NCBI GenBank assembly: GCA_018897155.1 | Contig: JAHILE010000040.1 | Coordinates: 20,157 to 84,156 of the forward strand | Origin: Nanobdellota archaeon | GTDB lineage: Archaea; EX4484-52; LFW-46 | Reading direction: 5' to 3' | DNA: 64,000 nucleotides | Shown: in pieces, positions 40,505 through 54,161 of the stretch | How the letters are laid out: the number at the start of each line of letters is the position of its first letter | Position numbering within the stretch: position 1 is the stretch's first letter | The notes under the pieces: generated by a model | Told to the model about the DNA's origin: nothing | Database searches by the model: none | What the model saw: the letters and a program-made list of their open reading frames with translations, nothing else | Translations under genes and position numbers: made by a program

Positions 40505-40774
40505 ATGGCAGAATACCCGAACATTACGGAAACGAATTACTTTACAAATCGTGCGCTTGAGAATGAAAGTGGTGAAAAAAACGGCAAAATCATTATGTGG
40601 CGCGTTAAAGGCAAAGAAAAATTTCATTATGCTCTTAAATGCCCGTATTGTGGCGAAACAACAGAACGTGATGAACTTTTTGAAAAAAAACCATATAGGC
40701 CGTGGTGCGACAAATGCGGTAAGAAAGTAATGGTTGAGAAGATTAAGGCAAAAAAGGAGAAACATAAAAAATAA
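40505..40774 (+). CDS. small zinc-ribbon protein
   Basis: 'CPYCG...17 aa...CDKCG' (CxxC...CxxC) with a Lys-rich tail. Confidence 0.45.
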   Translation: MAEYPNITETNYFTNRALENESGEKNGKIIMWRVKGKEKFHYALKCPYCGETTERDELFEKKPYRPWCDKCGKKVMVEKIKAKKEKHKK

Positions 40775-40923
40775 TATTTGGCTATTAAAGGTTTATTTTT
40801 CAAGCTTTGCTTGAAAATCGTCTCACTACGTTCGAAGCTTTCCATGCTTCGCCTGTAAAAGATAGAAATCGCGAATTGAGCGATTTCTTTATAAATTTTT
40901 TTCAATACTATATTGAGAGTTAG

Positions 40924-41101
40924 GCCTCGGTAGCTCAGCTCGGTGGAGCGCGTGACTTGTACGTTAATACAAACGCGAGACTCGTACGCTCGTGATATGT
41001 CTTCAAAGCAAAGATATCACGCGGTCGAGGGTTCAAAAACAGGATTTTGTTTAAAGTGGATAACATCTCAGCATTTCCTGTGGAACTTCCCTCCCGAGGC
41101 T
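40924..41101 (+). tRNA. tRNA-Thr(UGU) with two introns (anticodon loop and T-loop)
   Basis: GCCTCGG-TA-GCTC AGCTCGGTG GAGC. The anticodon stem is CGTGA/TCACG with loop CTTGTA|intron(~55 nt)|A. The T-stem GAGGG...CCCTC is interrupted after TTCAAAA by ~50 nt. The acceptor 3' strand CCGAGGC is perfectly complementary. Confidence 0.55.
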
Positions 41102-41412
41102 TAAACTATTTTTTAAGCTTTTTTTGTAATTGTAAAGCACATTTGAATAATAAAATTACTTGAAAACCTGAAGAATTTACTTAATTTTTCATTATTTTTT
41201 ATAAAATCGTGGGCAGAATACCCACAAATTTATTTGTGGGATGAATGCCGTGCCTCTTTTCAGTTTTTGTGCGAGAGGCAGAAACAGTAAAAACATTTAA
41301 TAGAGTTTTCTGTTCATTCTGGCTCATTAGAGCAATTGGGACTAAGTATCAAGGGGACAATTTTAATTCGTAGGGGAGGGAGCGACCTGTTTTGTTCTTT
41401 TACAAAAGCAAA

Positions 41413-43593
41413 TTATAGTTTTAAGAATTTCCAGTCCGATAAGTTATTCTCATCATAATTGTATCTTTCATTATCGTTATATCTACAACTCTCATCTTTA
41501 AAGATAATAATCCCGCCAAATAGCTTTTTATTATGCTTTTGATTTTGTGTTTTAATGTATTTGCTTAGTGCTTCTGCTTTTTCTTTAGCGACTTTTGCGG
41601 TTATTCCACTTTTAGTATCAAAAATACCTATTCTTCCATCATCAAGCATAATTACAAAATCAACATAAAATCCTCTTTCCACACCTGCATCGTCTTTATA
41701 TTTTACTGCAAGGTATTTTTTATCTGATTCTCCGTTTTTGAACCACCATTTAACAGAATTTTTTGGATTTTCAAGTAGTTTTATGAAATCTTTTTCTGGC
41801 ACACTTTCGGCAGAAATAAAATAAGGTTTCATAATTGCTTTTTTATGTGGCAATTCTTTGTATTTGCTGTTATAAGTTATTAGTTTGGGAACATTCCAGA
41901 CAAGATGCTCTGTTTCTCTTTGTTCTGGCAATCCTCCAACAATCTTGAGTTTGTATTCCTCTTTTGCTTCATTAATGCAATCAGTAAATAACTGATTATT
42001 TTCTTCTCCTAAAATTATCTTTTGAGCAAAAGTTTCATCTTCGATTTTTATTACTTTTTCAAAAAACTTATAGAGTGCTGTTCTTATTCTTCCTTGTGAA
42101 TCAGCAGGAGCAAAAGGAGTACAGCTTCCTCTTACAAATAAGTCAAATCTATGTTGTAATTCAACAGCACTTAACTTAAATTGCATTTCTCCTTTATGTT
42201 CTACTGTTTGAACTTTATCTAAAACCAATATTTTTCCATCAACCATTATTTTAGTTACGAGAGATTTTGGCTTTAGATTTATTTTCTTTGCAAGTTCGCT
42301 TTTTTGTGCAATTTCTAAGAATAATTTTGTAAATTCTCCAGAAAGTCTTGTCTTTTCTCTTTGTCTTATGAGATAGATTGAATTAAGATCAATATTGCTA
42401 TATAATTCTTCTCTTCTTTTTGCTTCGTAAATTGTGATATAATCTTTAGCGACTTCTTCAGTTATGTTAATGTCAGCAAGATTTGTGAATACATAACCTT
42501 TATTCAATTCTTCAGTTTCATAATGCTTAAACTCTGGCATTCTCATTATTCTGCCTACTGTCTGAATGGTAAAGTCCATACTTTGCATATCTCTGAACAT
42601 TACCAGAATGTATGCTCTTGGACAATCCCAACCTAATGCTATAGCTTGTTTGAAAATAAGAACTTGAACATCGTTATCAGGCATTTCAATATTCTCAAGG
42701 TTGGTTTTTTCTTCTGATAAATAAATCCCTAATTTTCCGTTTTCTGTTGTTATTTTGAATTTATCTCTTAAAATTCCCGTAATCTGTTCTTGCCTGTCAA
42801 TAACTCCTGTCTTTTTATCAGGAAGCTGAATTAAAATTAATGGATTGATATCGGATTTTTCTTTTTCTAATAGTTTAAGCATTTCCTGTCTTTTCTTTAA
42901 AGCACATTCAATAACTAATTCATCAGGAGATTTGTCAGAAACTTTTCCTTTGTCTAATTCTGGATTTATGGCAATTTCTTTCTTTATCATTCCCTCTTTT
43001 CTTACATCTTCAAATTCTACAAGAACATTATAAAAAGAATGAATGTGCGGAGTAGCTGAAACTTCCAAAATTACATCGGGATCAATATCATTTATTAAAT
43101 TTCTTGAAGTTTCTGTTTTAGCAGTAAAGTGACTTTCGTCTATAATTAAAACTATTTTTGTGCCGTCTTCTTTCGTGTTTTCAATAATTTTAGATAAATT
43201 TCTTTCCTGTTCATTTTCTCTAATATAAACATTATCTGTTTTGTTTATGCTTTCCCAATTCAAGAACAAAATTTCATCTGGCTCAATTTTATTACCTACT
43301 AAATCTTCAAAAAATTTACACTCTATCGCTCTTGTCGTAGAATAATATTTATCTAATTTTTCTTTACTTTGTGTATGTAATTGTCTTGGAGCTGTCCAAA
43401 TAAAAGCGATTTGCTTTCCATCGTCTCTTCTATCAACAAGTCTTTTAATAAATTCGGCCACCATTAAAGTTTTACCAGAGCCTGTCGGAGATTTAAAAAC
43501 TAAAGTTTCTCTTGAATCTCGATTTAGTAATTCGTTAATCTGTTCTTTTAGTTTTAAAATTGCTTTCTCTTGATAATCTTTAATTTCAATCAT
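41413..43593 (-). CDS. Type III restriction enzyme Res subunit (SF2 helicase + PD-(D/E)xK nuclease)
   Basis: Walker A 'SPTGSGKT', DEAH-like 'LIIDESH' and a C-terminal 'VDFVIMLDDGRIGIFDTK' nuclease motif. Confidence 0.75.
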   Translation of the reverse strand: MIEIKDYQEKAILKLKEQINELLNRDSRETLVFKSPTGSGKTLMVAEFIKRLVDRRDDGKQIAFIWTAPRQLHTQSKEKLDKYYSTTRAIECKFFEDLVGNKIEPDEILFLNWESINKTDNVYIRENEQERNLSKIIENTKEDGTKIVLIIDESHFTAKTETSRNLINDIDPDVILEVSATPHIHSFYNVLVEFEDVRKEGMIKKEIAINPELDKGKVSDKSPDELVIECALKKRQEMLKLLEKEKSDINPLILIQLPDKKTGVIDRQEQITGILRDKFKITTENGKLGIYLSEEKTNLENIEMPDNDVQVLIFKQAIALGWDCPRAYILVMFRDMQSMDFTIQTVGRIMRMPEFKHYETEELNKGYVFTNLADINITEEVAKDYITIYEAKRREELYSNIDLNSIYLIRQREKTRLSGEFTKLFLEIAQKSELAKKINLKPKSLVTKIMVDGKILVLDKVQTVEHKGEMQFKLSAVELQHRFDLFVRGSCTPFAPADSQGRIRTALYKFFEKVIKIEDETFAQKIILGEENNQLFTDCINEAKEEYKLKIVGGLPEQRETEHLVWNVPKLITYNSKYKELPHKKAIMKPYFISAESVPEKDFIKLLENPKNSVKWWFKNGESDKKYLAVKYKDDAGVERGFYVDFVIMLDDGRIGIFDTKSGITAKVAKEKAEALSKYIKTQNQKHNKKLFGGIIIFKDESCRYNDNERYNYDENNLSDWKFLKL

Positions 43594-45337
43594 TCTTGAA
43601 AACCTTCCTATAAACTTTTAAGATTGTTTCTGGAATAGGACATAAAGTAACTTTGTTTTTAATGGTTTTAAATTCCTTTGTCGGCACAGAATCATCATGC
43701 GAGAATACATATACATGGATTTTTCCGTTTATTTTTTCTGCTTCTTTGACAAATTCATCAATATACTCGTCATCAAATACTATTCCTAAATGCAGTTTAT
43801 CATTTTTGAAAATCTTGAATTTCTTTGTGTCTTTGACTTTTTCAAAAGTATTTTCCTTAATGCAAAGCATTTCTGTGCAGTTATCAACCAGTTTACGCTT
43901 GTTTTTATCTGTTTGCTCTGCTTCAACAAAATCTGTTTTATAATATTTGAGATTACCGCCAAGACCTTCGATTTTTTCGTTAGATGCGTTAGTATATCCT
44001 TTAATTATTTTTTGTATTCTTGGATAACATACATCTGAGCAAATATTGCCTTCATTATTAGTGCATAAAATAAATGATAAATCTTGATTGAGTTCATCGT
44101 TTAGTTCCATTACTGCATGGCCTGTAGTTCCTGAACCTGCCATGAAATCTAAGACAACGCCTTTTTCTGGACAAGAATATTTAATTAGTTCTTTAAGTAA
44201 TTTCTTAGGTTTTGGATAATTAAATAATTGTTTACCAAATATATTTCTAAGCTCCTTTGTCGCAGCTTGATTTAAATCAGATTGCATTATTTTTATTCCA
44301 TTTTCGTCTTCTTCAGAATCAATGGCGACTTTTTTTATAACCGATGCTTCTATCCATGTTGATAAAGGTTTAAAGTTAGATTTTAACTCGTTTGCAAACC
44401 GTTTATATTGTGGTGTTCCGTTCTCTTTTTTTGGAAAGATTACTTTACCTGCTTTAATCTCATTTAACATTCTAACTCTCTCAAAACGCCAAACCCTGCT
44501 TGGATTAGCAGGATAAACCTTTCCTGTTTTAGGGTCGGTTATATCATAATATAAATTAGGTCTTTCATCTTTTGTTTTACCGCAAGTAAGATCTCCTGCT
44601 GTCCAAGGGCCCCTAGGGTCGTTATTAGGATTCTTATAGTTGCTTAAATCTTTCTCTATACCAAAAAGAGAGGCTTTTTCTGATTTTTTATAGCAAAAAA
44701 TATATTCATGGTCAGTTGATACTAAATTTTTTGGATCATTTGCTCCACTTCTTCTTTTCCAAACAAAATTAGCTACAAAATTGGTCTCTCCAAATATATC
44801 CTCACAGAGTAGTTTTAATTGTGCATTTTCATTATCATCAATCGAGATAAAAATAATTCCTGTATCTTTTAGTAGATTTTTAGCAAGAGCTAAACGCTTA
44901 CTCATAAAAGAAAGCCATTTACTATGTCTATATCCATCTTCTTTATCTACAAATTTATCATTATACTTAAAATCCTTATTTCCTGTGTTATACGGTGGAT
45001 CTATATAGATAACATCCACAGAATTTTTATGTGTGAAATTAAGAACAGCAAGTGAATGGTAATTATCTCCTTCAATTAAAAGATTAACTGGCTTGTCTTT
45101 ATCTGAATTTATCTCTTTATCTTTTACTTCTGCTAAAACTGGAAACTTATCTTTACTTTCTGGGCTAAATTCTTCTTTAGTCTTTTCGCCTTCCCAGTTA
45201 ATGAATAAGTCAAAATCTTCTTTAGTTTTCTCTCGTTCCCAAACTAAACCGTAAGTTTTTTGCTTCTTTAAAGCCAAAATTTCTCTTATGAGCTCCTCTT
45301 TTGACCATTCAATGTAATTTCTTTTTCCATTAACCAT
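43586..45337 (-). CDS. Type III restriction-modification Mod subunit (N6-adenine DNA methyltransferase, beta class)
   Basis: Motif IV 'IYIDPPYN' precedes motif I 'LDFMAGSGTTGHA'. The gene overlaps res by 8 nt. Confidence 0.8.
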   Translation of the reverse strand: MVNGKRNYIEWSKEELIREILALKKQKTYGLVWEREKTKEDFDLFINWEGEKTKEEFSPESKDKFPVLAEVKDKEINSDKDKPVNLLIEGDNYHSLAVLNFTHKNSVDVIYIDPPYNTGNKDFKYNDKFVDKEDGYRHSKWLSFMSKRLALAKNLLKDTGIIFISIDDNENAQLKLLCEDIFGETNFVANFVWKRRSGANDPKNLVSTDHEYIFCYKKSEKASLFGIEKDLSNYKNPNNDPRGPWTAGDLTCGKTKDERPNLYYDITDPKTGKVYPANPSRVWRFERVRMLNEIKAGKVIFPKKENGTPQYKRFANELKSNFKPLSTWIEASVIKKVAIDSEEDENGIKIMQSDLNQAATKELRNIFGKQLFNYPKPKKLLKELIKYSCPEKGVVLDFMAGSGTTGHAVMELNDELNQDLSFILCTNNEGNICSDVCYPRIQKIIKGYTNASNEKIEGLGGNLKYYKTDFVEAEQTDKNKRKLVDNCTEMLCIKENTFEKVKDTKKFKIFKNDKLHLGIVFDDEYIDEFVKEAEKINGKIHVYVFSHDDSVPTKEFKTIKNKVTLCPIPETILKVYRKVFKND

Positions 45338-45391
45338 TTATTTGTTCCCCTTTATTCTCAATATAACCTATGATGTTTATTAATGTTTTTC

Positions 45392-46030
45392 TTATTTAAC
45401 CATTGTGTTGCATTCTTCTAATCTTTCACAAAGCAAACTGGCAAAACTCAGATATTTTAATGCCCTGTTTTTATCTTTTTGGATAATATTCTCATGTCCC
45501 TTTGGGTTTCTTATACCCATTATTGCACCTGCATAAAGATGCATAAATCCTTCTTGTTCATCTTTATCTGATTGGGATACAAGTCCATTCATTTTTAGTA
45601 GAGGGCTATTTACACTAAAAGCAGTTAGCATAAGACTTTTACCATCCAAGTCTTTGCGACAAGATTTCTCTTTAACAAGATTATTTATTTTCTTAAAAGC
45701 CTCAAAAATTGCTTGAGCATAATGTTTATCATAAAATAATTTTTTACTGACGGATTCTATTTCAGGATGGATATTTAATAATCTAAAATATTCCACTTCT
45801 GTTTTTTTCCCTTCATAGAAATCCGCATTATTTTTTTGAATCCAACCTTTATCCTCTAAACGTAAGAATTTTTTACAGGATTTAAGTTGCATTAAAATAT
45901 TTGAGCAGGTTATTTGATATTCGTCAAAAAGTTTGTTTTTTACGTCGCTTGGCCTTCTATGTTCTAGAAAGTATCCATTTTTCCATAATTCGCTTATTGC
46001 AGTATTTATTTTCATGTTAATCAGATACAT
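45392..46030 (-). CDS. hypothetical protein in RM island
   Basis: A 212-aa ORF with no catalytic motif recognised. It lies on the same strand immediately upstream of mod. Confidence 0.35.
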   Translation of the reverse strand: MYLINMKINTAISELWKNGYFLEHRRPSDVKNKLFDEYQITCSNILMQLKSCKKFLRLEDKGWIQKNNADFYEGKKTEVEYFRLLNIHPEIESVSKKLFYDKHYAQAIFEAFKKINNLVKEKSCRKDLDGKSLMLTAFSVNSPLLKMNGLVSQSDKDEQEGFMHLYAGAIMGIRNPKGHENIIQKDKNRALKYLSFASLLCERLEECNTMVK

Positions 46031-46394
46031 AAGCCCATTTCTTTAATTTTGTCCCATTATTTAGCGTCTTGGTCTTTTTAAGAGAGCCATTCCTAACAAT
46101 ATTCCTTAGTGGGAGCGTAATGTCTGATGCTTTAAAATGGTAGTCTTTTTCTTTTAACTTATCCAACATTTCTTTTACAGTTCTAGGTTGATTAAAAAAG
46201 TTTCCTAAAGAAAGAATCTTCTCAGTAGTGCTTCCTTTTCTGTACCAGTTAGCTAATTTCTCACTTTTCACTTCTTTGGATTTAGACGCTGGCTCTTTGC
46301 GTTCTAAAAGGGTAATTCTTCTTTCATGGTCATCAAGAATTGCCTTAAACTCTTTTTCTGTTATCATCTTTATCATCTCCGAACATAAACCCAC
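46017..46394 (-). CDS. small winged-helix-like protein, paralog 1
   Basis: Its C-terminal half aligns with ORF 46373..46741 (ILxxGFFNxPxxxxE...KKWxYV). Confidence 0.4.
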   Translation of the reverse strand: MGLCSEMIKMITEKEFKAILDDHERRITLLERKEPASKSKEVKSEKLANWYRKGSTTEKILSLGNFFNQPRTVKEMLDKLKEKDYHFKASDITLPLRNIVRNGSLKKTKTLNNGTKLKKWAYVSD

Positions 46395-46741
46395 TTTTTC
46401 TCTTGTTTAATTCTTCTTAATTCCTTACCTTTTACCAATCCTAGAACTATTGCAGATAAGGTGGTAATTGGGATAAATGTTCCTTGTTCTTCAAGCCCTT
46501 GTTTCAATTCAGCCAGACTTTTTGGCTTGTTAAAAAATCCTTCTGCAAGAATCTTTCTGATAGTATCTGTTATAGTTGGTTTTGAATTAGCCTTAGCTTT
46601 GATAAATTTTTTAAATTCTTTTGCAGGAGTTTCAGGAGTTTTTTCATCTTTATATAGATTCATAACTTTTGAAATCTCTTCTGGAGTACCCTCTATAACA
46701 ATTTTAGTCCCATCTTTTGTTTCAATATTTGCTTTAGTCAT
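46373..46741 (-). CDS. small winged-helix-like protein, paralog 2
   Basis: 'TITDTIRKILAEGFFNKPKSLAELKQGLEE...KKWVYVRR'. Confidence 0.4.
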   Translation of the reverse strand: MTKANIETKDGTKIVIEGTPEEISKVMNLYKDEKTPETPAKEFKKFIKAKANSKPTITDTIRKILAEGFFNKPKSLAELKQGLEEQGTFIPITTLSAIVLGLVKGKELRRIKQEKKWVYVRR

Positions 46742-46799
46742 TTTTAATCGCCCTTAATAACATAATAGTGTAATAATGCAATAGTATTTAAATCTTTCG

Positions 46800-47600
46800 C
46801 CTATTTGTCCAGTGGTTCGTAGTTTCGTCGCCCCCTCCCCTGTTCGTCGTTTTTCGTTTAAATTTGTCCCCCTTCTTGAGATTTCACTTTGTGAAATCTC
46901 CTATTGTTAGCTGTCCTTTCAATTCTGTAGGGCATCCATAAATATCATATTCAAAGACATCTTTGCCTTGCTGTTCTTGAATGTATCTCTTAACTTGCTC
47001 TTGTGAAACGTGTCCAGCAGAGCCACAGTAATAACCTCTTGCCCAGAGGTTATCAAAACCTTTGCCGAAGTGCTGTTTATATCCAAGATACCTTAATTCA
47101 GGAAAGCATCGCCTTAATTGTATTGAAGTATTGCCTTTCAGCTTATGAATTATCTTGAAAGGAGTTACTGTCGGCTTTGCACCTACGAATAGATGCAAGT
47201 GGTCAGGCATAATCTCGAATGCCAGATTGCTAATGCTCATTTCTTGGCATTGCCCTTCAATGATTGCTTTCAGAACTTCAACAACCTTTCCAGTCAATAC
47301 TGGCTTCCTGTATTTTGGAATCCAAATAATGTGGTAATTGATGTTGTATTTGCAATGGTGAGATGTCCTCACAGTTGCGATTTTACTCTCGATTTTGTGC
47401 ACTTCTGGATTGAAGTGCGGATATAGTTTTTTAGTCATAGCGACCACCTCATGCTGAAGGTGGTTGCTTGTATCGTTAGGGGGTTCTCGTTTAGCGAACC
47501 ATACATTAAACTTTTAGCGTAGCGACCTCTGCAAGAGGGAAAAGTTTAAGTTAAATGGTTTGCGTGAGAAACCCCCAGCTTTAGCTGGATTTATTTTGGG
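46800..47600 (-). mobile_element. IS200-like insertion (TnpA only) with subterminal hairpins
   Basis: A perfect hairpin GAGATTTCAC-TTT-GTGAAATCTC (46878-46900) overlaps the tnpA stop. Imperfect palindromes GGGGGTTCTC/GAGAAACCCCC lie at 47474-47582. No tnpB was found, and the boundaries are approximate. Confidence 0.45.
46884..47447 (-). CDS. tnpA: IS200/IS605-family transposase TnpA (HUH Y1)
   Basis: 'YHIIWIPKYRKPVL', 'DHLHLFV' (HuH), 'LKGNTSIQLRRCFPEL' and 'WARGYYCGSAGHVSQEQVKRYIQEQ'. Confidence 0.85.
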   Translation of the reverse strand: MVAMTKKLYPHFNPEVHKIESKIATVRTSHHCKYNINYHIIWIPKYRKPVLTGKVVEVLKAIIEGQCQEMSISNLAFEIMPDHLHLFVGAKPTVTPFKIIHKLKGNTSIQLRRCFPELRYLGYKQHFGKGFDNLWARGYYCGSAGHVSQEQVKRYIQEQQGKDVFEYDIYGCPTELKGQLTIGDFTK

Positions 47601-47632
47601 AGTATGTTATTTCTAAAAATAAATATTATTTA

Positions 47633-47764
47633 TCTCCCACCCCATCATTTCCCTTAGAGATGTTTTTTGATTTTTCAATATGTTGCTATTGTTATAACAA
47701 TGTTATATTCGGTTCTATATAGGTATAGTATATAGTTCCATACGAAATGATGGGGTGGGGGTGT
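47633..47764. promoter_or_regulatory. predicted replication origin core: 16-bp perfect inverted ORB-like repeats flanking ~90-bp AT-rich DUE, upstream of orc1/cdc6
   Basis: 'GGGAAATGATGGGGTGGG' (antisense at 47633-47653) and 'GAAATGATGGGGTGGGGGTG' (47745-47764) face each other across AT-rich DNA. The GGAAATGA...GGGGT core resembles archaeal ORB elements. Confidence 0.5.
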
Positions 47765-47922
47765 TTAAAATCGAAAAATATTTTCATTTTTTATTTTTCA
47801 AAAAATCTTAAAAATTTCTATTGGAACTTTAAGAGGGGTTGGGTTCTTATGGAAACCCCAGAAAGAAAAAGATATAAGCTTTTTAAGCAAATAAAGCATA
47901 CCTTTGTTTCTCATGGAGGGCG

Positions 47923-49143
47923 TTGATGCAAATGGCTCAAACAACAATTCAGCAAATATTCTCTAATTATATGACAAAGCAACCGCTTTTTTTAGATAAA
48001 CGAGCACTTACTACATCATACACACCGGAAAATGTTCCGCATAGGGAAGAACAGATATCACAACTTGCATCGATTGTCACTCCTGTTCTGAAAAAAGAGA
48101 GGCCTTCAAATGTTTTTATATACGGTCCAACAGGAAGTGGCAAAACACTTGTTACGCAATATGTTGCATCAGAGCTAAAAACGGCGGCAAAAAACAACAA
48201 CATACCATTTCATATTGTTTATGTGAATTGTAAAATGAAACGCGTGGCTGATACAGAGTACCGCCTCCTTGCGCACCTTGCAAATCTGCTCGGAAAAACC
48301 GTACCGCCCACAGGCTTGCCCACAGATCAGGTATATAAGATATTTTACAGCGCGCTTGATGAGCGTGAAGGCGTGGTTATATTTATCATTGACGAAATAG
48401 ACGCGCTTATTAAAAAAGTCGGTGACGAACTGCTTTACAATTTTACAAGAATGAATCAAGATATAAAAAATGTAAAGGTGTCTATAATCGGTATTTCAAA
48501 CGACATTGCATTTACAGAAAATCTTGATGCGCGTGTCCGATCATCCCTTTCAGAAGAGGAACTTCTCTTTCCACCATATAACGCACTTCAGCTTCAAAGA
48601 ATACTTTCAGAGCGCGCAAGCATAGCATTCAATAAATCAAAAGTATCCGATGGCGTGATTTCAAAATGTGCGGCTCTTGCAGCCCAGGAACATGGCGATG
48701 CAAGGCGCGCATTGGATTTATTGAGGGTTGCAGGAGAGCTTGCAGAGCGTGAAAACGCGCCAATGGTTGAGGAAAAGCATGTTGATGCCGCAGAATCAAA
48801 GGTTGACCTGGACCGGGTAATAGAAACAGTAAAAATGCAGCCCAAACAGTCAAAAGCAATACTTTACAGCATAATTTATCTTACGCGCGGTGATGAAAAG
48901 ACCTGCCTTTCAGGCGATGTTTATGAGGAATATGTGCGCATCACAAAGGTCCTTGGCCTTAAGCCCCTGACACAGAGGCGTGTTTCTGACATAATTTCAG
49001 AGCTTGACATAATGGGTGTAATAACGTCAAAAGTCATAAGCAAGGGGAGGTATGGGAGAATGCGTGATATTGGCCTTGCTATATCGACGGAGATTTACCA
49101 AAAACTGCTGAATTTTTTAAAGAGCGATTTTGGATTTGATTAA
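47923..49143 (+). CDS. orc1: Orc1/Cdc6 replication initiator
   Basis: An AAA+ domain ('IYGPTGSGKT', 'IIDEIDAL') plus a C-terminal winged helix. Confidence 0.85.
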   Translation: MMQMAQTTIQQIFSNYMTKQPLFLDKRALTTSYTPENVPHREEQISQLASIVTPVLKKERPSNVFIYGPTGSGKTLVTQYVASELKTAAKNNNIPFHIVYVNCKMKRVADTEYRLLAHLANLLGKTVPPTGLPTDQVYKIFYSALDEREGVVIFIIDEIDALIKKVGDELLYNFTRMNQDIKNVKVSIIGISNDIAFTENLDARVRSSLSEEELLFPPYNALQLQRILSERASIAFNKSKVSDGVISKCAALAAQEHGDARRALDLLRVAGELAERENAPMVEEKHVDAAESKVDLDRVIETVKMQPKQSKAILYSIIYLTRGDEKTCLSGDVYEEYVRITKVLGLKPLTQRRVSDIISELDIMGVITSKVISKGRYGRMRDIGLAISTEIYQKLLNFLKSDFGFD

Positions 49144-52548: not shown

Positions 52549-53055
52549 TTAAACCAATATCAACATGAATGTCAAAGATAAAAAATTATTGGAATAATGT
52601 GATAACAGACTTCCTTTAAATTGATATTTCTTGTAGACTAACCCAAAAACGATACCTATTAACATCATGTCAATTGCTTTAAGTATGCCCCACCCAAATA
52701 AAATGTGCCAAAAACCAAATAGAGTACTTGAAATAAACAATCCTAATCTAAACCGTTCATTTAAAATAAACCAATTAAGTAATCCTCTTCTAAAAATTAC
52801 TTCCTCAAAAAAGGGTGCAAAAATACCCACATACAAAATTTTAACGAGAGGAGATTGACTTAACCACCAAGAACCTTTACCAACCGTTAGTGCTATAGTG
52901 GCAGGATATAAATAAAAAATTAATTTCAAAAGATGATAATTGATTAAATAAAGAGAAAAACCAATCAAAATCGGGCAGAATAATCTACCATGTTTATTAT
53001 CTATAAAACTATTATCTATAAAACTGTTTAATTTTGAGAAAGTTATACGGGACAT
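52549..53055 (-). CDS. CPBP-family (CAAX) intramembrane metalloprotease
   Basis: 'EEVIFRRGLLNWF' and 'FGFWHILFG' motifs in a polytopic membrane protein. Confidence 0.65.
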   Translation of the reverse strand: MSRITFSKLNSFIDNSFIDNKHGRLFCPILIGFSLYLINYHLLKLIFYLYPATIALTVGKGSWWLSQSPLVKILYVGIFAPFFEEVIFRRGLLNWFILNERFRLGLFISSTLFGFWHILFGWGILKAIDMMLIGIVFGLVYKKYQFKGSLLSHYSNNFLSLTFMLILV

Positions 53056-53321
53056 AGTATATTTTTTAAATCAAATAATTTAAAGTTTCCTTCTGAGTCC
53101 AACTGAGTAATATTTCACTTAACTCCGAGGTTTAAAGAACTTCGCGAAGCGAAATTGGACGGAGAAACCTGTAATGTTTCGGAGCCGTTAAAGCGCCGAG
53201 TTAGTTTCGCCCCACATGGATTGATTTTTAGCGCAGCGTTCCCGAAGAAAAAAATCAAAGTCGCGAGGGCGCTTTATGTGCGAAAAGAATTTATTTGAAT
53301 GAAATCTTCGATGTTAATATT

Positions 53322-53522
53322 TTATTTTTGCTTTAATACCAACCAGTACCAGAAATTAACTACTATTGGAATAATGGTTATGATAATAACAAGAATAACG
53401 AACTGCCACGTCAAAGAGTTCAAGTCTGTGCCATGCTTTTTAAGTGCATAGAAGATTATTGAATCTGTTGCTGCTACAACAATAGTAACTATAATAACTA
53501 ATCTTGTGAAGAGGCTCATCAT
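53322..53522 (-). CDS. small 2-TM membrane protein
   Basis: A 66-aa protein with two hydrophobic helices. Confidence 0.3.
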   Translation of the reverse strand: MMSLFTRLVIIVTIVVAATDSIIFYALKKHGTDLNSLTWQFVILVIIITIIPIVVNFWYWLVLKQK

Positions 53523-54161
53523 ATTATTAATAAGATTCTGGATTTAATAACTATGTTGTTTTTTTGGCGCCCTCTCGATTTGGAGTAAATTCCGCTTTTC
53601 GCGCCATTAGTGGATAAAAGCGGAATCCCGCAGAGAAGTGGCGATTATTACGCGCTTAAAAGAACCAGCTCTTGCTGCGCAATTAAATTATAAAGAAAAA
53701 TTGGCGATGCGAGAAGAACATCAATTAATTCCCGCACCGAGAGTATTTCATGTCCCTGTTTACGTCTGTCTTAATCAAAATCGTCTTGGAGCCTTCATAG
53801 GCGATCGCGTATGAAATTCGATCATTTTGTTAATCCTTTTGACCTCTTTCCAGTTGCCGCGTAAAGCCATTTGAGCTTTCATTTCCTTTAGTGTTAATAC
53901 GTCCATATCTATCACCTATATTGTTTTAAGGTTTTATGCCGCTTGAAACAAACACGAACCCGTGGAGTTTAAACCGTTTAACCTACCTTACAGTATTTGT
54001 TTCATCTCCTAAAACAACTGCAATTAAAGAACTCCCCTTTGCAACCGTTTGTCTTCCATATCTATGGATGAGGTGGTATATAAATCTATCGTAGTCTACT
54101 GCTATCGAAATCTAAAAAATCAGAGCGCGAAAAGCAATTTTTTACGACAGTTGTTGATTTT

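Follow-up and report, generated by a model that had tools for sequence, protein, structure and literature searches.

The 64,000-nt stretch of DNA analysed here (the window), from a contig of a Nanobdellota archaeon (JAHILE010000040.1), carries what is very probably a canonical chromosomal origin of replication of the oriC1 type, belonging to a DPANN archaeon and located beside the initiator gene orc1/cdc6. An origin had been proposed at this place in an earlier note on the same DNA. That interpretation is borne out by the scores of its repeats against an origin recognition box (ORB) matrix, the polarity of the boxes, the AT-rich spacer between them, the Orc1-1-type initiator and the layout of related loci, and a strand-corrected skew over 64 kb is supportive. 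The order ORB, spacer, ORB, orc1 also agrees with the note in placing the origin directly 5′ of orc1, the canonical archaeal arrangement. What the note passed over is the most distinctive feature of the origin, a palindrome at the centre of the spacer, which appears from comparison with related loci to be a lineage-specific element set within a canonical oriC1-type origin.

Inverted origin recognition boxes around an AT-rich spacer

The proposal was built on a perfect 16-bp inverted repeat with ~90 bp between its arms. The two arms, CCCACCCCATCATTTC (47636-47651) and GAAATGATGGGGTGGG (47744-47759), are indeed 100% complementary over 16 nt and are separated by 92 nt; the repeat measures ~124 bp end to end and lies ~170 nt upstream of the orc1/cdc6 gene. 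The coordinates first assigned to it were 1-5 nt off. The 18-mer GGGAAATGATGGGGTGGG, which had been placed on both strands, is present on the bottom strand (47636-47653), but the top strand reads ACGAAATGATGGGGTGGGGG, with 16 nt common to the two. The 16-mer of the arms has no other copy within the window, and only 0.02% of 5000 first-order Markov simulations of the 343-nt intergenic region produced a perfect inverted repeat of at least 16 nt. A chance origin of the repeat is unlikely.

To score the likeness of the arms to ORBs, a training set was taken from the 600 nt upstream of orc1 in 40 related genome loci, with the window left out. Sites matching T[TC]C[ACT]-N3-GAA[AG]-N4-GGGG were converted into a 32-column weight matrix (consensus AATTTCCACAGGAAATGAAGGGGTGGGTGTGT), which was scanned over both strands of the window (~128,000 positions). 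The right arm ranked first (47733(+), TAGTTCCATACGAAATGATGGGGTGGGGGTGT, 36.5 bits) and the left arm second (47662(-), CATCTCTAAGGGAAATGATGGGGTGGGAGATA, 22.6 bits), compared with 13.0 bits for the third-ranked site, and the resemblance to ORBs suspected earlier is thereby confirmed. The right arm belongs to a full ORB on the + strand, ORB-R (47737..47761, TCCATACGAAATGATGGGGTGGGGG), in which a mini-ORB is followed after a 4-nt spacer by the G-string GGGGT and then by an extended second G-run (GGGGTGGGGG). Its counterpart on the - strand, ORB-L (47636..47658, bottom strand TCTAAGGGAAATGATGGGGTGGG), contains the left arm and has a mini-ORB with TCTA for TCCA, a 4-nt spacer and the G-string GGGGTGGG, which is distal to the unwinding region. 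The two full ORBs are inverted with their G-strings facing outward from the spacer, in keeping with an oriC1-type origin, for which at least two full inverted ORBs are expected.

The 78-bp AT-rich region between the boxes (47659..47736) is the presumed duplex unwinding element and loading zone for the MCM (minichromosome maintenance) helicase. Its A+T content is 73.9% when measured over 47652-47743 and 76.6% over 47659-47735, short of the ~80% put forward earlier and above the window mean of 59.7%. The best segments of 60-150 nt in the region 47.6-47.85 kb belong to the least-stable 0.03-0.2% of the window. A second AT-rich tract, with 79.5% A+T, extends from ORB-R to the orc1 promoter (47762..47842) and holds a mini-ORB, TTTCTATTGGAAC; the least-stable 60-nt segment of the origin region begins at its first base, right of ORB-R. 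AT-rich DNA suited to unwinding is thus found both between and beside the ORBs. The second tract differs in length and sequence among relatives and is deleted in three of them (L165, L166 and L083).

Comparison with other genomes places these elements at the orthologous position in six close relatives (Orc1 76-94% identical), which were obtained by exact-protein look-ups alone, and in dozens of related DPANN loci. There the order ORB(-), AT-rich spacer, ORB(+), orc1 recurs, with an inner ORB-to-ORB distance of ~71-80 bp. Four blocks of the alignment are conserved, namely ORB-L, ORB-R, the promoter mini-ORBs and a block at the spacer centre. In the close relatives ORB-L has the consensus C.CACCCC...TTC...TGGA, and five of its orthologues (L081, L164, L082, L166 and L083) have the canonical TCCA; at ORB-R, TTCCA.A.GAAA....GGGGTG.G.G is invariant. 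At the 12 non-consensus positions the two arms of one origin match at 4-8 (mean 5.33, against 4.84 between loci), and the perfect identity of the 16-nt arms is a peculiarity of this genome. Since the arms are not kept complementary in relatives, the constraint would appear to act on each box as a binding site and not on a hairpin.

A conserved palindrome at the spacer centre

The centre of the unwinding region is occupied by the palindrome TATAACAnTGTTATA, which reads TATAACA-A-TGTTATA (7-1-7; 47693..47707) and occurs once in the window. The centre of TATAACAATGTTATA, at 47700, is offset by 2.5 bp from that of the ORB dyad (47697.5). Among the close relatives the spacer-centre block TTATAACA.TGTTAT is the most strongly conserved part of the alignment. 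The 6-nt core arms (ATAACA / TGTTAT) are invariant in 7/7 loci (Orc1 76-100% identical), and variation is limited to the central base and, in L164, to the final one.

A census of orc1 loci, in which up to two mismatches to the 15-mer were allowed, extends this conservation well beyond the close relatives. The palindrome was present in 26 of 32 DPANN-labelled genome loci and in 48 of 51 metagenome loci with a DPANN-like Orc1, which together make 74 of 83 DPANN-type loci (~90%), compared with 3 of 59 euryarchaeal loci. The counts in Methanosarcinales, Archaeoglobi, Methanocellales and similar loci (1/41 and 2/18) are at the level of the shuffled control. Across 168 orc1 loci the core ATAAC-N3-GTTAT occurs 1.42 times per kb in the 400 nt 5′ of orc1 and 0.015 times per kb elsewhere, a 95-fold difference. 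Its position is also kept, with median distances from the palindrome centre to the inner ORB ends of 47 nt for ORB(-) and 36 nt for ORB(+); the values for the window are 42 and 37 nt. One clade (L001, L167 and L168) has the half-site TATAACA alone, at a similar distance from ORB(+). The origin region of this clade (66% Orc1 identity; -240 to -850 relative to orc1) is laid out differently, with a far-upstream ORB(-) followed by ~300 nt of AT-rich DNA and a convergent ORB(+)/ORB(-) pair.

It is possible, and we offer it as a tentative proposal, that DPANN origins are three-part replicators of the form ORB-palindrome-ORB, in which the palindrome binds a dimeric origin factor or nucleates double-hexamer assembly or first melting. 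Our best guess is that it could serve as the docking site of a dimeric accessory origin protein; alternatively, it might position helicase loading or the first melting of the duplex. A candidate for the binding factor is a protein of the HTH_3 (Xre-type) family, ~250 aa long, whose gene neighbours the origin in 30 of 71 DPANN loci. A metallophosphoesterase gene lies upstream of the origin in 21 of the 71. Examples of these recurrent upstream neighbours are found at L003:3950-4753, L168:1470-2201 and L008:4092-4817, and no homologue of the origin-adjacent HTH_3 protein or metallophosphoesterase was found in the window. A role of the palindrome as a general transcription-factor operator was considered and rejected: the 16 core copies outside origins are mostly within genes, and the few intergenic ones adjoin unrelated genes (metallophosphoesterase, TctA, unknowns) which do not make up a replication regulon. 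L021 has the palindrome twice, the second copy being placed 48 nt 5′ of a metallophosphoesterase gene of the origin-adjacent kind. No description of the palindrome or of DPANN ORBs was found in the open-access literature. If the proposal is true, the three-part replicator would represent a lineage-specific layer of initiation control beyond that of model archaea, and one found in host-dependent organisms.

The initiator gene and its promoter

The gene adjacent to the origin, orc1/cdc6 (47932..49143, + strand), encodes an Orc1-1-type initiator of 403 aa with the Pfam domains Cdc6_lid (6e-26), Cdc6_C (9e-26) and AAA. Among proteins of solved structure it is closest to S. solfataricus Cdc6-1 (2qby_A, 8e-104) and A. 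pernix ORC1 (2v1u_A, 6e-96); matches to Cdc6-3 (1e-45) and ORC2 (4e-11) are weaker. The earlier claim of an orc1 gene downstream of the repeat agrees with these domains, but its start at TTG 47923 does not stand. Because the homologues are 403 aa long, the start is most likely ATG 47932, or else ATG 47926. The product is 100% identical to proteins labelled 'Nanoarchaeota archaeon' and 'archaeon', and the proteins nearest to it after these carry the labels Nanohaloarchaeota, Aenigmatarchaeota or DPANN. A species-representative genome collection and metagenome scans contained no Orc1 relative more than 66% identical; hundreds of DPANN orthologues fall at 50-66% identity. The GC content of orc1 is native. 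Proteins encoded in the window (n=18) have a median isoelectric point of 8.4 and a (D+E)/(K+R) ratio of 0.94, values that do not fit a halophile with an acidic proteome.

Mini-ORBs are concentrated in front of this gene. The mini-ORB pattern has five matches, ORB-R among them, in the 343 bp from 47590 to 47932, where 0.36 are expected (~14-fold, P = 4e-5). Three mini-ORBs lie between ORB-R and the orc1 start. The first is the near-palindromic TTTCTATTGGAAC (47815-47827), at which the pattern matches on either strand. The second, TTCTTATGGAAAC (47844-47856, + strand), is just 5′ of a TATA-like box, GATATAAGC (47871-47879), and the pair of this mini-ORB and a downstream (A)GATATAA(G/A)C is also seen in L003 and L004 (at -76/-77) and in L081, L164 and L082. 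A half-site had been noted at 47851, which does fall within this conserved mini-ORB; conservation does not extend to the CCCCAG behind it. The third, TTTCTCATGGAG (47907-47918, - strand; bottom strand CTCCATGAGAAA), overlaps the orc1 leader and the ribosome-binding region, so that a mini-ORB lies to either side of the TATA-like box. It scores 11.3 bits (rank 5 in the window) and lies in a block, ACCTTTGTTTCTCATGGAG, that is nearly invariant among close relatives. Many related loci have minus-strand mini-ORBs 5-36 nt 5′ of the start codon, and the second and third mini-ORBs are both kept in close relatives, with counterparts in many distant loci. The third is likely a site of Orc1 autoregulation, and the conservation of the promoter mini-ORBs in general fits such a role.

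Strand asymmetry

The raw cumulative GC skew of the window has its minimum at 47308, close to the predicted origin, but this signal is dominated by coding strand (t = 12) and was dropped as evidence. Per-gene third-codon skew, with the + strand as reference, was regressed on two terms, coding strand and the side of the locus on which a gene lies. The side term was 0.08 (t = 4.1-4.4; 0.083 at t = 4.4), with or without the genes of the inserted island to the left of the origin that is described below; the strand term lacked significance (t = 1.0-1.4). The two sides separate best when the split is set between 41 and 47 kb. On the + strand G exceeds C on the right side of the locus and C exceeds G on its left side. 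An excess of G over C rightward and of C over G leftward is the polarity of leading strands that diverge from an origin. In a 64-kb view, the change of sign of the strand-corrected third-codon skew at the locus is supportive of an origin.

An inserted island and tRNA-Thr on the left flank

The conserved origin DNA has a sharp left limit. In L081 a Zn-ribbon gene and an intron-containing tRNA-Thr gene directly adjoin the origin, followed by orc1 and UDP-glucose dehydrogenase, and the order tRNA-Thr, origin, orc1, UDP-glucose dehydrogenase is common to L081 and the window. The window counterparts of the first two genes lie at 40505-41128, and homology of the origin flank picks up again at ~47590. 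In L083, whose contig begins inside the tRNA 3′ end, the origin and orc1 are followed by UDP-glucose dehydrogenase one gene further on.

The intervening 6.46 kb (41130..47590), with a GC content of ~30% compared with ~40%, is an inserted island and not part of the origin. Pfam matches identify in it a Type III restriction subunit (res, 41413-43593), a DNA methylase (mod, 43586-45337), a Hypoth_Ymh gene (45392-46030) and an IS200-like Y1 transposase gene, tnpA (46884-47447). Two small open reading frames (ORFs) and terminal hairpins complete the island, in which no integrase was seen. The tnpA sense strand corresponds to the lagging-strand template for a leftward fork, in agreement with the insertion bias of the family, if the 'top strand' of the IS200 literature is the tnpA sense strand, as we take it to be; this is a single case. 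Beside the tnpA start the - strand of 47436-47592 folds into three stacked hairpins (z = -3.97), which are probably the subterminal structures of the left end of the insertion sequence (IS). Elements of the IS200/IS605 type have subterminal hairpins in place of terminal inverted repeats. Positions 47474 and 47571, which had been proposed as further origin half-sites, are the two arms of a long imperfect hairpin of ~100 nt (47474-47576) inside the inserted DNA, and they are not upheld as part of the origin.

To the left of the island is a tRNA-Thr(UGU) gene (40924-41100, + strand) with two introns, one of 54 nt at the canonical position 37/38 (40962-41015) and one of 50 nt in the T-loop (41038-41087). 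Unspliced, it was missed by both ARAGORN and Rfam; after in-silico splicing ARAGORN returned a clean 76-nt tRNA-Thr. In the L081 homologue the T-loop insert is longer. ARAGORN and Rfam detected neither a tRNA nor any known RNA in the origin or beside it. The T-loop intron of the window contains a perfect mini-ORB, TTTCCTGTGGAAC (41076-41088; rank 3, 13.0 bits), without a G-string. L164 likewise has such a mini-ORB and L081 does not. Were the island removed, the box would come to stand ~90 nt to the left of ORB-L; it may be a third binding site for Orc1, or its presence there may be coincidental.

The junction of tRNA-Thr and the origin is a place where foreign DNA is taken up, in the window an IS-bearing island with restriction-modification genes. 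The contigs of five of the six close relatives (L082, L083, L164, L165 and L166) end 260-470 nt 5′ of orc1, and two of these ends fall inside the tRNA-Thr 3′ end. The pattern points to variation at the population level, or to repeats that interrupt assembly, at the junction, and the uptake of foreign DNA may explain why related contigs break a few hundred bases 5′ of orc1.

Elsewhere in the window, 52900-54161 is marked by an ORF-poor stretch of ~1.1 kb (53056-54161) and by the least stable duplex of the window at 52.9-53.0 kb, where the 15-mer TATTATCTATAAAAC occurs as a tandem pair (52995-53024). The region at 53.06-54.16 kb was considered as a second origin or an RNA gene and was rejected, since neither an ORB nor an Rfam match nor notable repeats were found in it.

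Weighing the origin against alternatives

By analogy with solved Orc1-ORB complexes and with origin genetics in Sulfolobus, Aeropyrum, Pyrococcus and haloarchaea, initiation at this locus can be pictured as follows. Orc1 would sit as monomers on ORB-L and ORB-R, its winged helix placed at the mini-ORB and its AAA+ initiator-specific motif facing the G-string. This would distort the DNA and recruit the MCM helicase to the intervening AT-rich DNA, which would melt, and replication would leave the origin bidirectionally. Orc1 bound at the promoter-proximal mini-ORBs would feed back on orc1 transcription.

Several points weigh against an origin at this locus. The origin is a prediction from sequence. 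The inter-ORB spacer is not the stability minimum of the window, the duplex at 52.9-53.0 kb being less stable, and the tract right of ORB-R is also locally less stable than the spacer. The mini-ORB of ORB-L is slightly degenerate (TCTA), and the end of the island, ~46 nt from ORB-L, could affect function. The skew covers 64 kb of the replicon, so its minimum is a local one, and the raw minimum shifts to 37.2 kb once the island is removed. Finally, some archaea can do without their Cdc6-linked origin, as Thermococcus kodakarensis is reported to replicate without Cdc6 and its presumed origin (PMC5663688).

This last observation also lends weight to an alternative in which the cluster of ORBs and mini-ORBs is a mere Orc1 autoregulatory operator and replication starts elsewhere or independently of an origin. 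The three mini-ORBs that flank or overlap the TATA-like box and leader of orc1 would be expected of such an operator. However, DPANN genomes typically have a single Orc1 (bioRxiv 10.64898/2026.05.13.725050), and in the 64-kb view the strand-corrected skew changes sign at the locus. The full ORBs are moreover 170-300 nt 5′ of the start codon and inverted around a spacer of conserved length and centre, a layout for which a promoter operator would have no need. We consider it improbable that the cluster is an operator and nothing else.

The locus might also be an origin that came with an integrated plasmid or virus, together with its orc1, and not that of the chromosome. Archaeal mobile elements often carry orc1/cdc6 genes, and the origin is bordered directly on its left by foreign DNA of low GC, the island with its restriction-modification genes and IS. 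That island, though, is separated from orc1 by the origin and is absent from L081, where tRNA-Thr adjoins the same origin; orc1 itself has native GC, belongs to a conserved Orc1-1 lineage and sits in a conserved UDP-glucose dehydrogenase neighbourhood. An integrated element is very unlikely as the source of this origin.

That the inverted repeat represents the termini of a miniature inverted-repeat transposable element, or part of the neighbouring IS, is scarcely credible: a perfect 16-nt inverted repeat of ~124 bp beside an IS200-like transposase gene does recall such an element, but the window contains one copy of it only, relatives without the IS have it at the orthologous position, its arms diverge independently with the ORB consensus kept, and IS200/IS605 elements lack terminal inverted repeats, their subterminal hairpins having been found separately at 47436-47592. 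We give just as little credence to a functional DNA cruciform or an RNA hairpin (a non-coding RNA or terminator), for although the single strand folds with z = -4.4, the fold is driven entirely by the 16-nt arms, whose complementarity relatives do not keep, and the window has no Rfam match at gathering thresholds except two tRNAs.

Comparison with known origins

No characterised DPANN replication origin was found in the searchable literature; DPANN sources assume an origin beside ORC1 and rotate genomes to ORC1. The locus described here and ~80 related loci provide a testable cis-architecture for very small, host-dependent archaea, with two outward-facing ORBs 71-80 bp apart and a conserved palindrome at the centre between them. 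The palindrome may serve as a short, specific DNA bait for a new origin-binding factor, or for mapping where helicase loading or melting starts.

The closest initiators are those of S. solfataricus and A. pernix (2QBY, 2V1U), whose oriC1 has the same inverted ORBs, AT-rich region and adjacent initiator gene. The ORB grammar TCCA-N3-GAAA-N4-GGGGT is common to the window and to the 22-mer TCTCCACAGGAAACGGAGGGGT, which we take to be the A. pernix ORB4 oligonucleotide, although its source paper does not name it. Unlike these origins, the window has only two full ORBs together with mini-ORBs, an extended second G-run and a central palindrome. To our knowledge no central palindrome is reported for the S. 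solfataricus or A. pernix origins, and none turned up in the searchable literature.

The Pyrococcus oriC, with its ORB1, ORB2 and mini-ORB repeats, shares with the window the mini-ORB core TTCC...GAA and the clustering of ORBs and mini-ORBs by cdc6. The mini-ORB is separated from the G-run by 9 nt in the Pyrococcus ORBs (GGAAATGAAACTCTGGGGGG, the reverse complement of published oligonucleotides) and by 4 nt in the window. A single Pyrococcus mini-ORB binds Cdc6 weakly.

The haloarchaeal oriC1 of Haloferax volcanii and Haloarcula hispanica likewise has two inverted ORBs with outward G-strings that flank an unwinding element. In H. hispanica oriC1, which has been dissected by mutation, a C-run is found at the left ORB and a G-run at the right, and both ORBs and their G-strings are essential. 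A G-rich inverted repeat lies just inside the ORBs of H. hispanica, whereas the window has an AT-rich palindrome at the centre. The extended G-string is common to the Halo-ORB and the window, where a second G-run follows GGGGT in ORB-R (GGGGTGGGGG) and in ORB-L (GGGGTGGG), and it has been published as halophile-specific. The host of the window does not appear to be a halophile, and an extended G-string in a host whose proteome is not acidic indicates, contrary to that description, that the feature is not specific to halophiles. The box may resemble the Halo-ORB in function, with the label 'halophile-specific' a misfit. What takes this locus beyond a routine archaeal origin is the combination of a DPANN-wide, precisely placed central palindrome with an extended G-string in a non-halophile.

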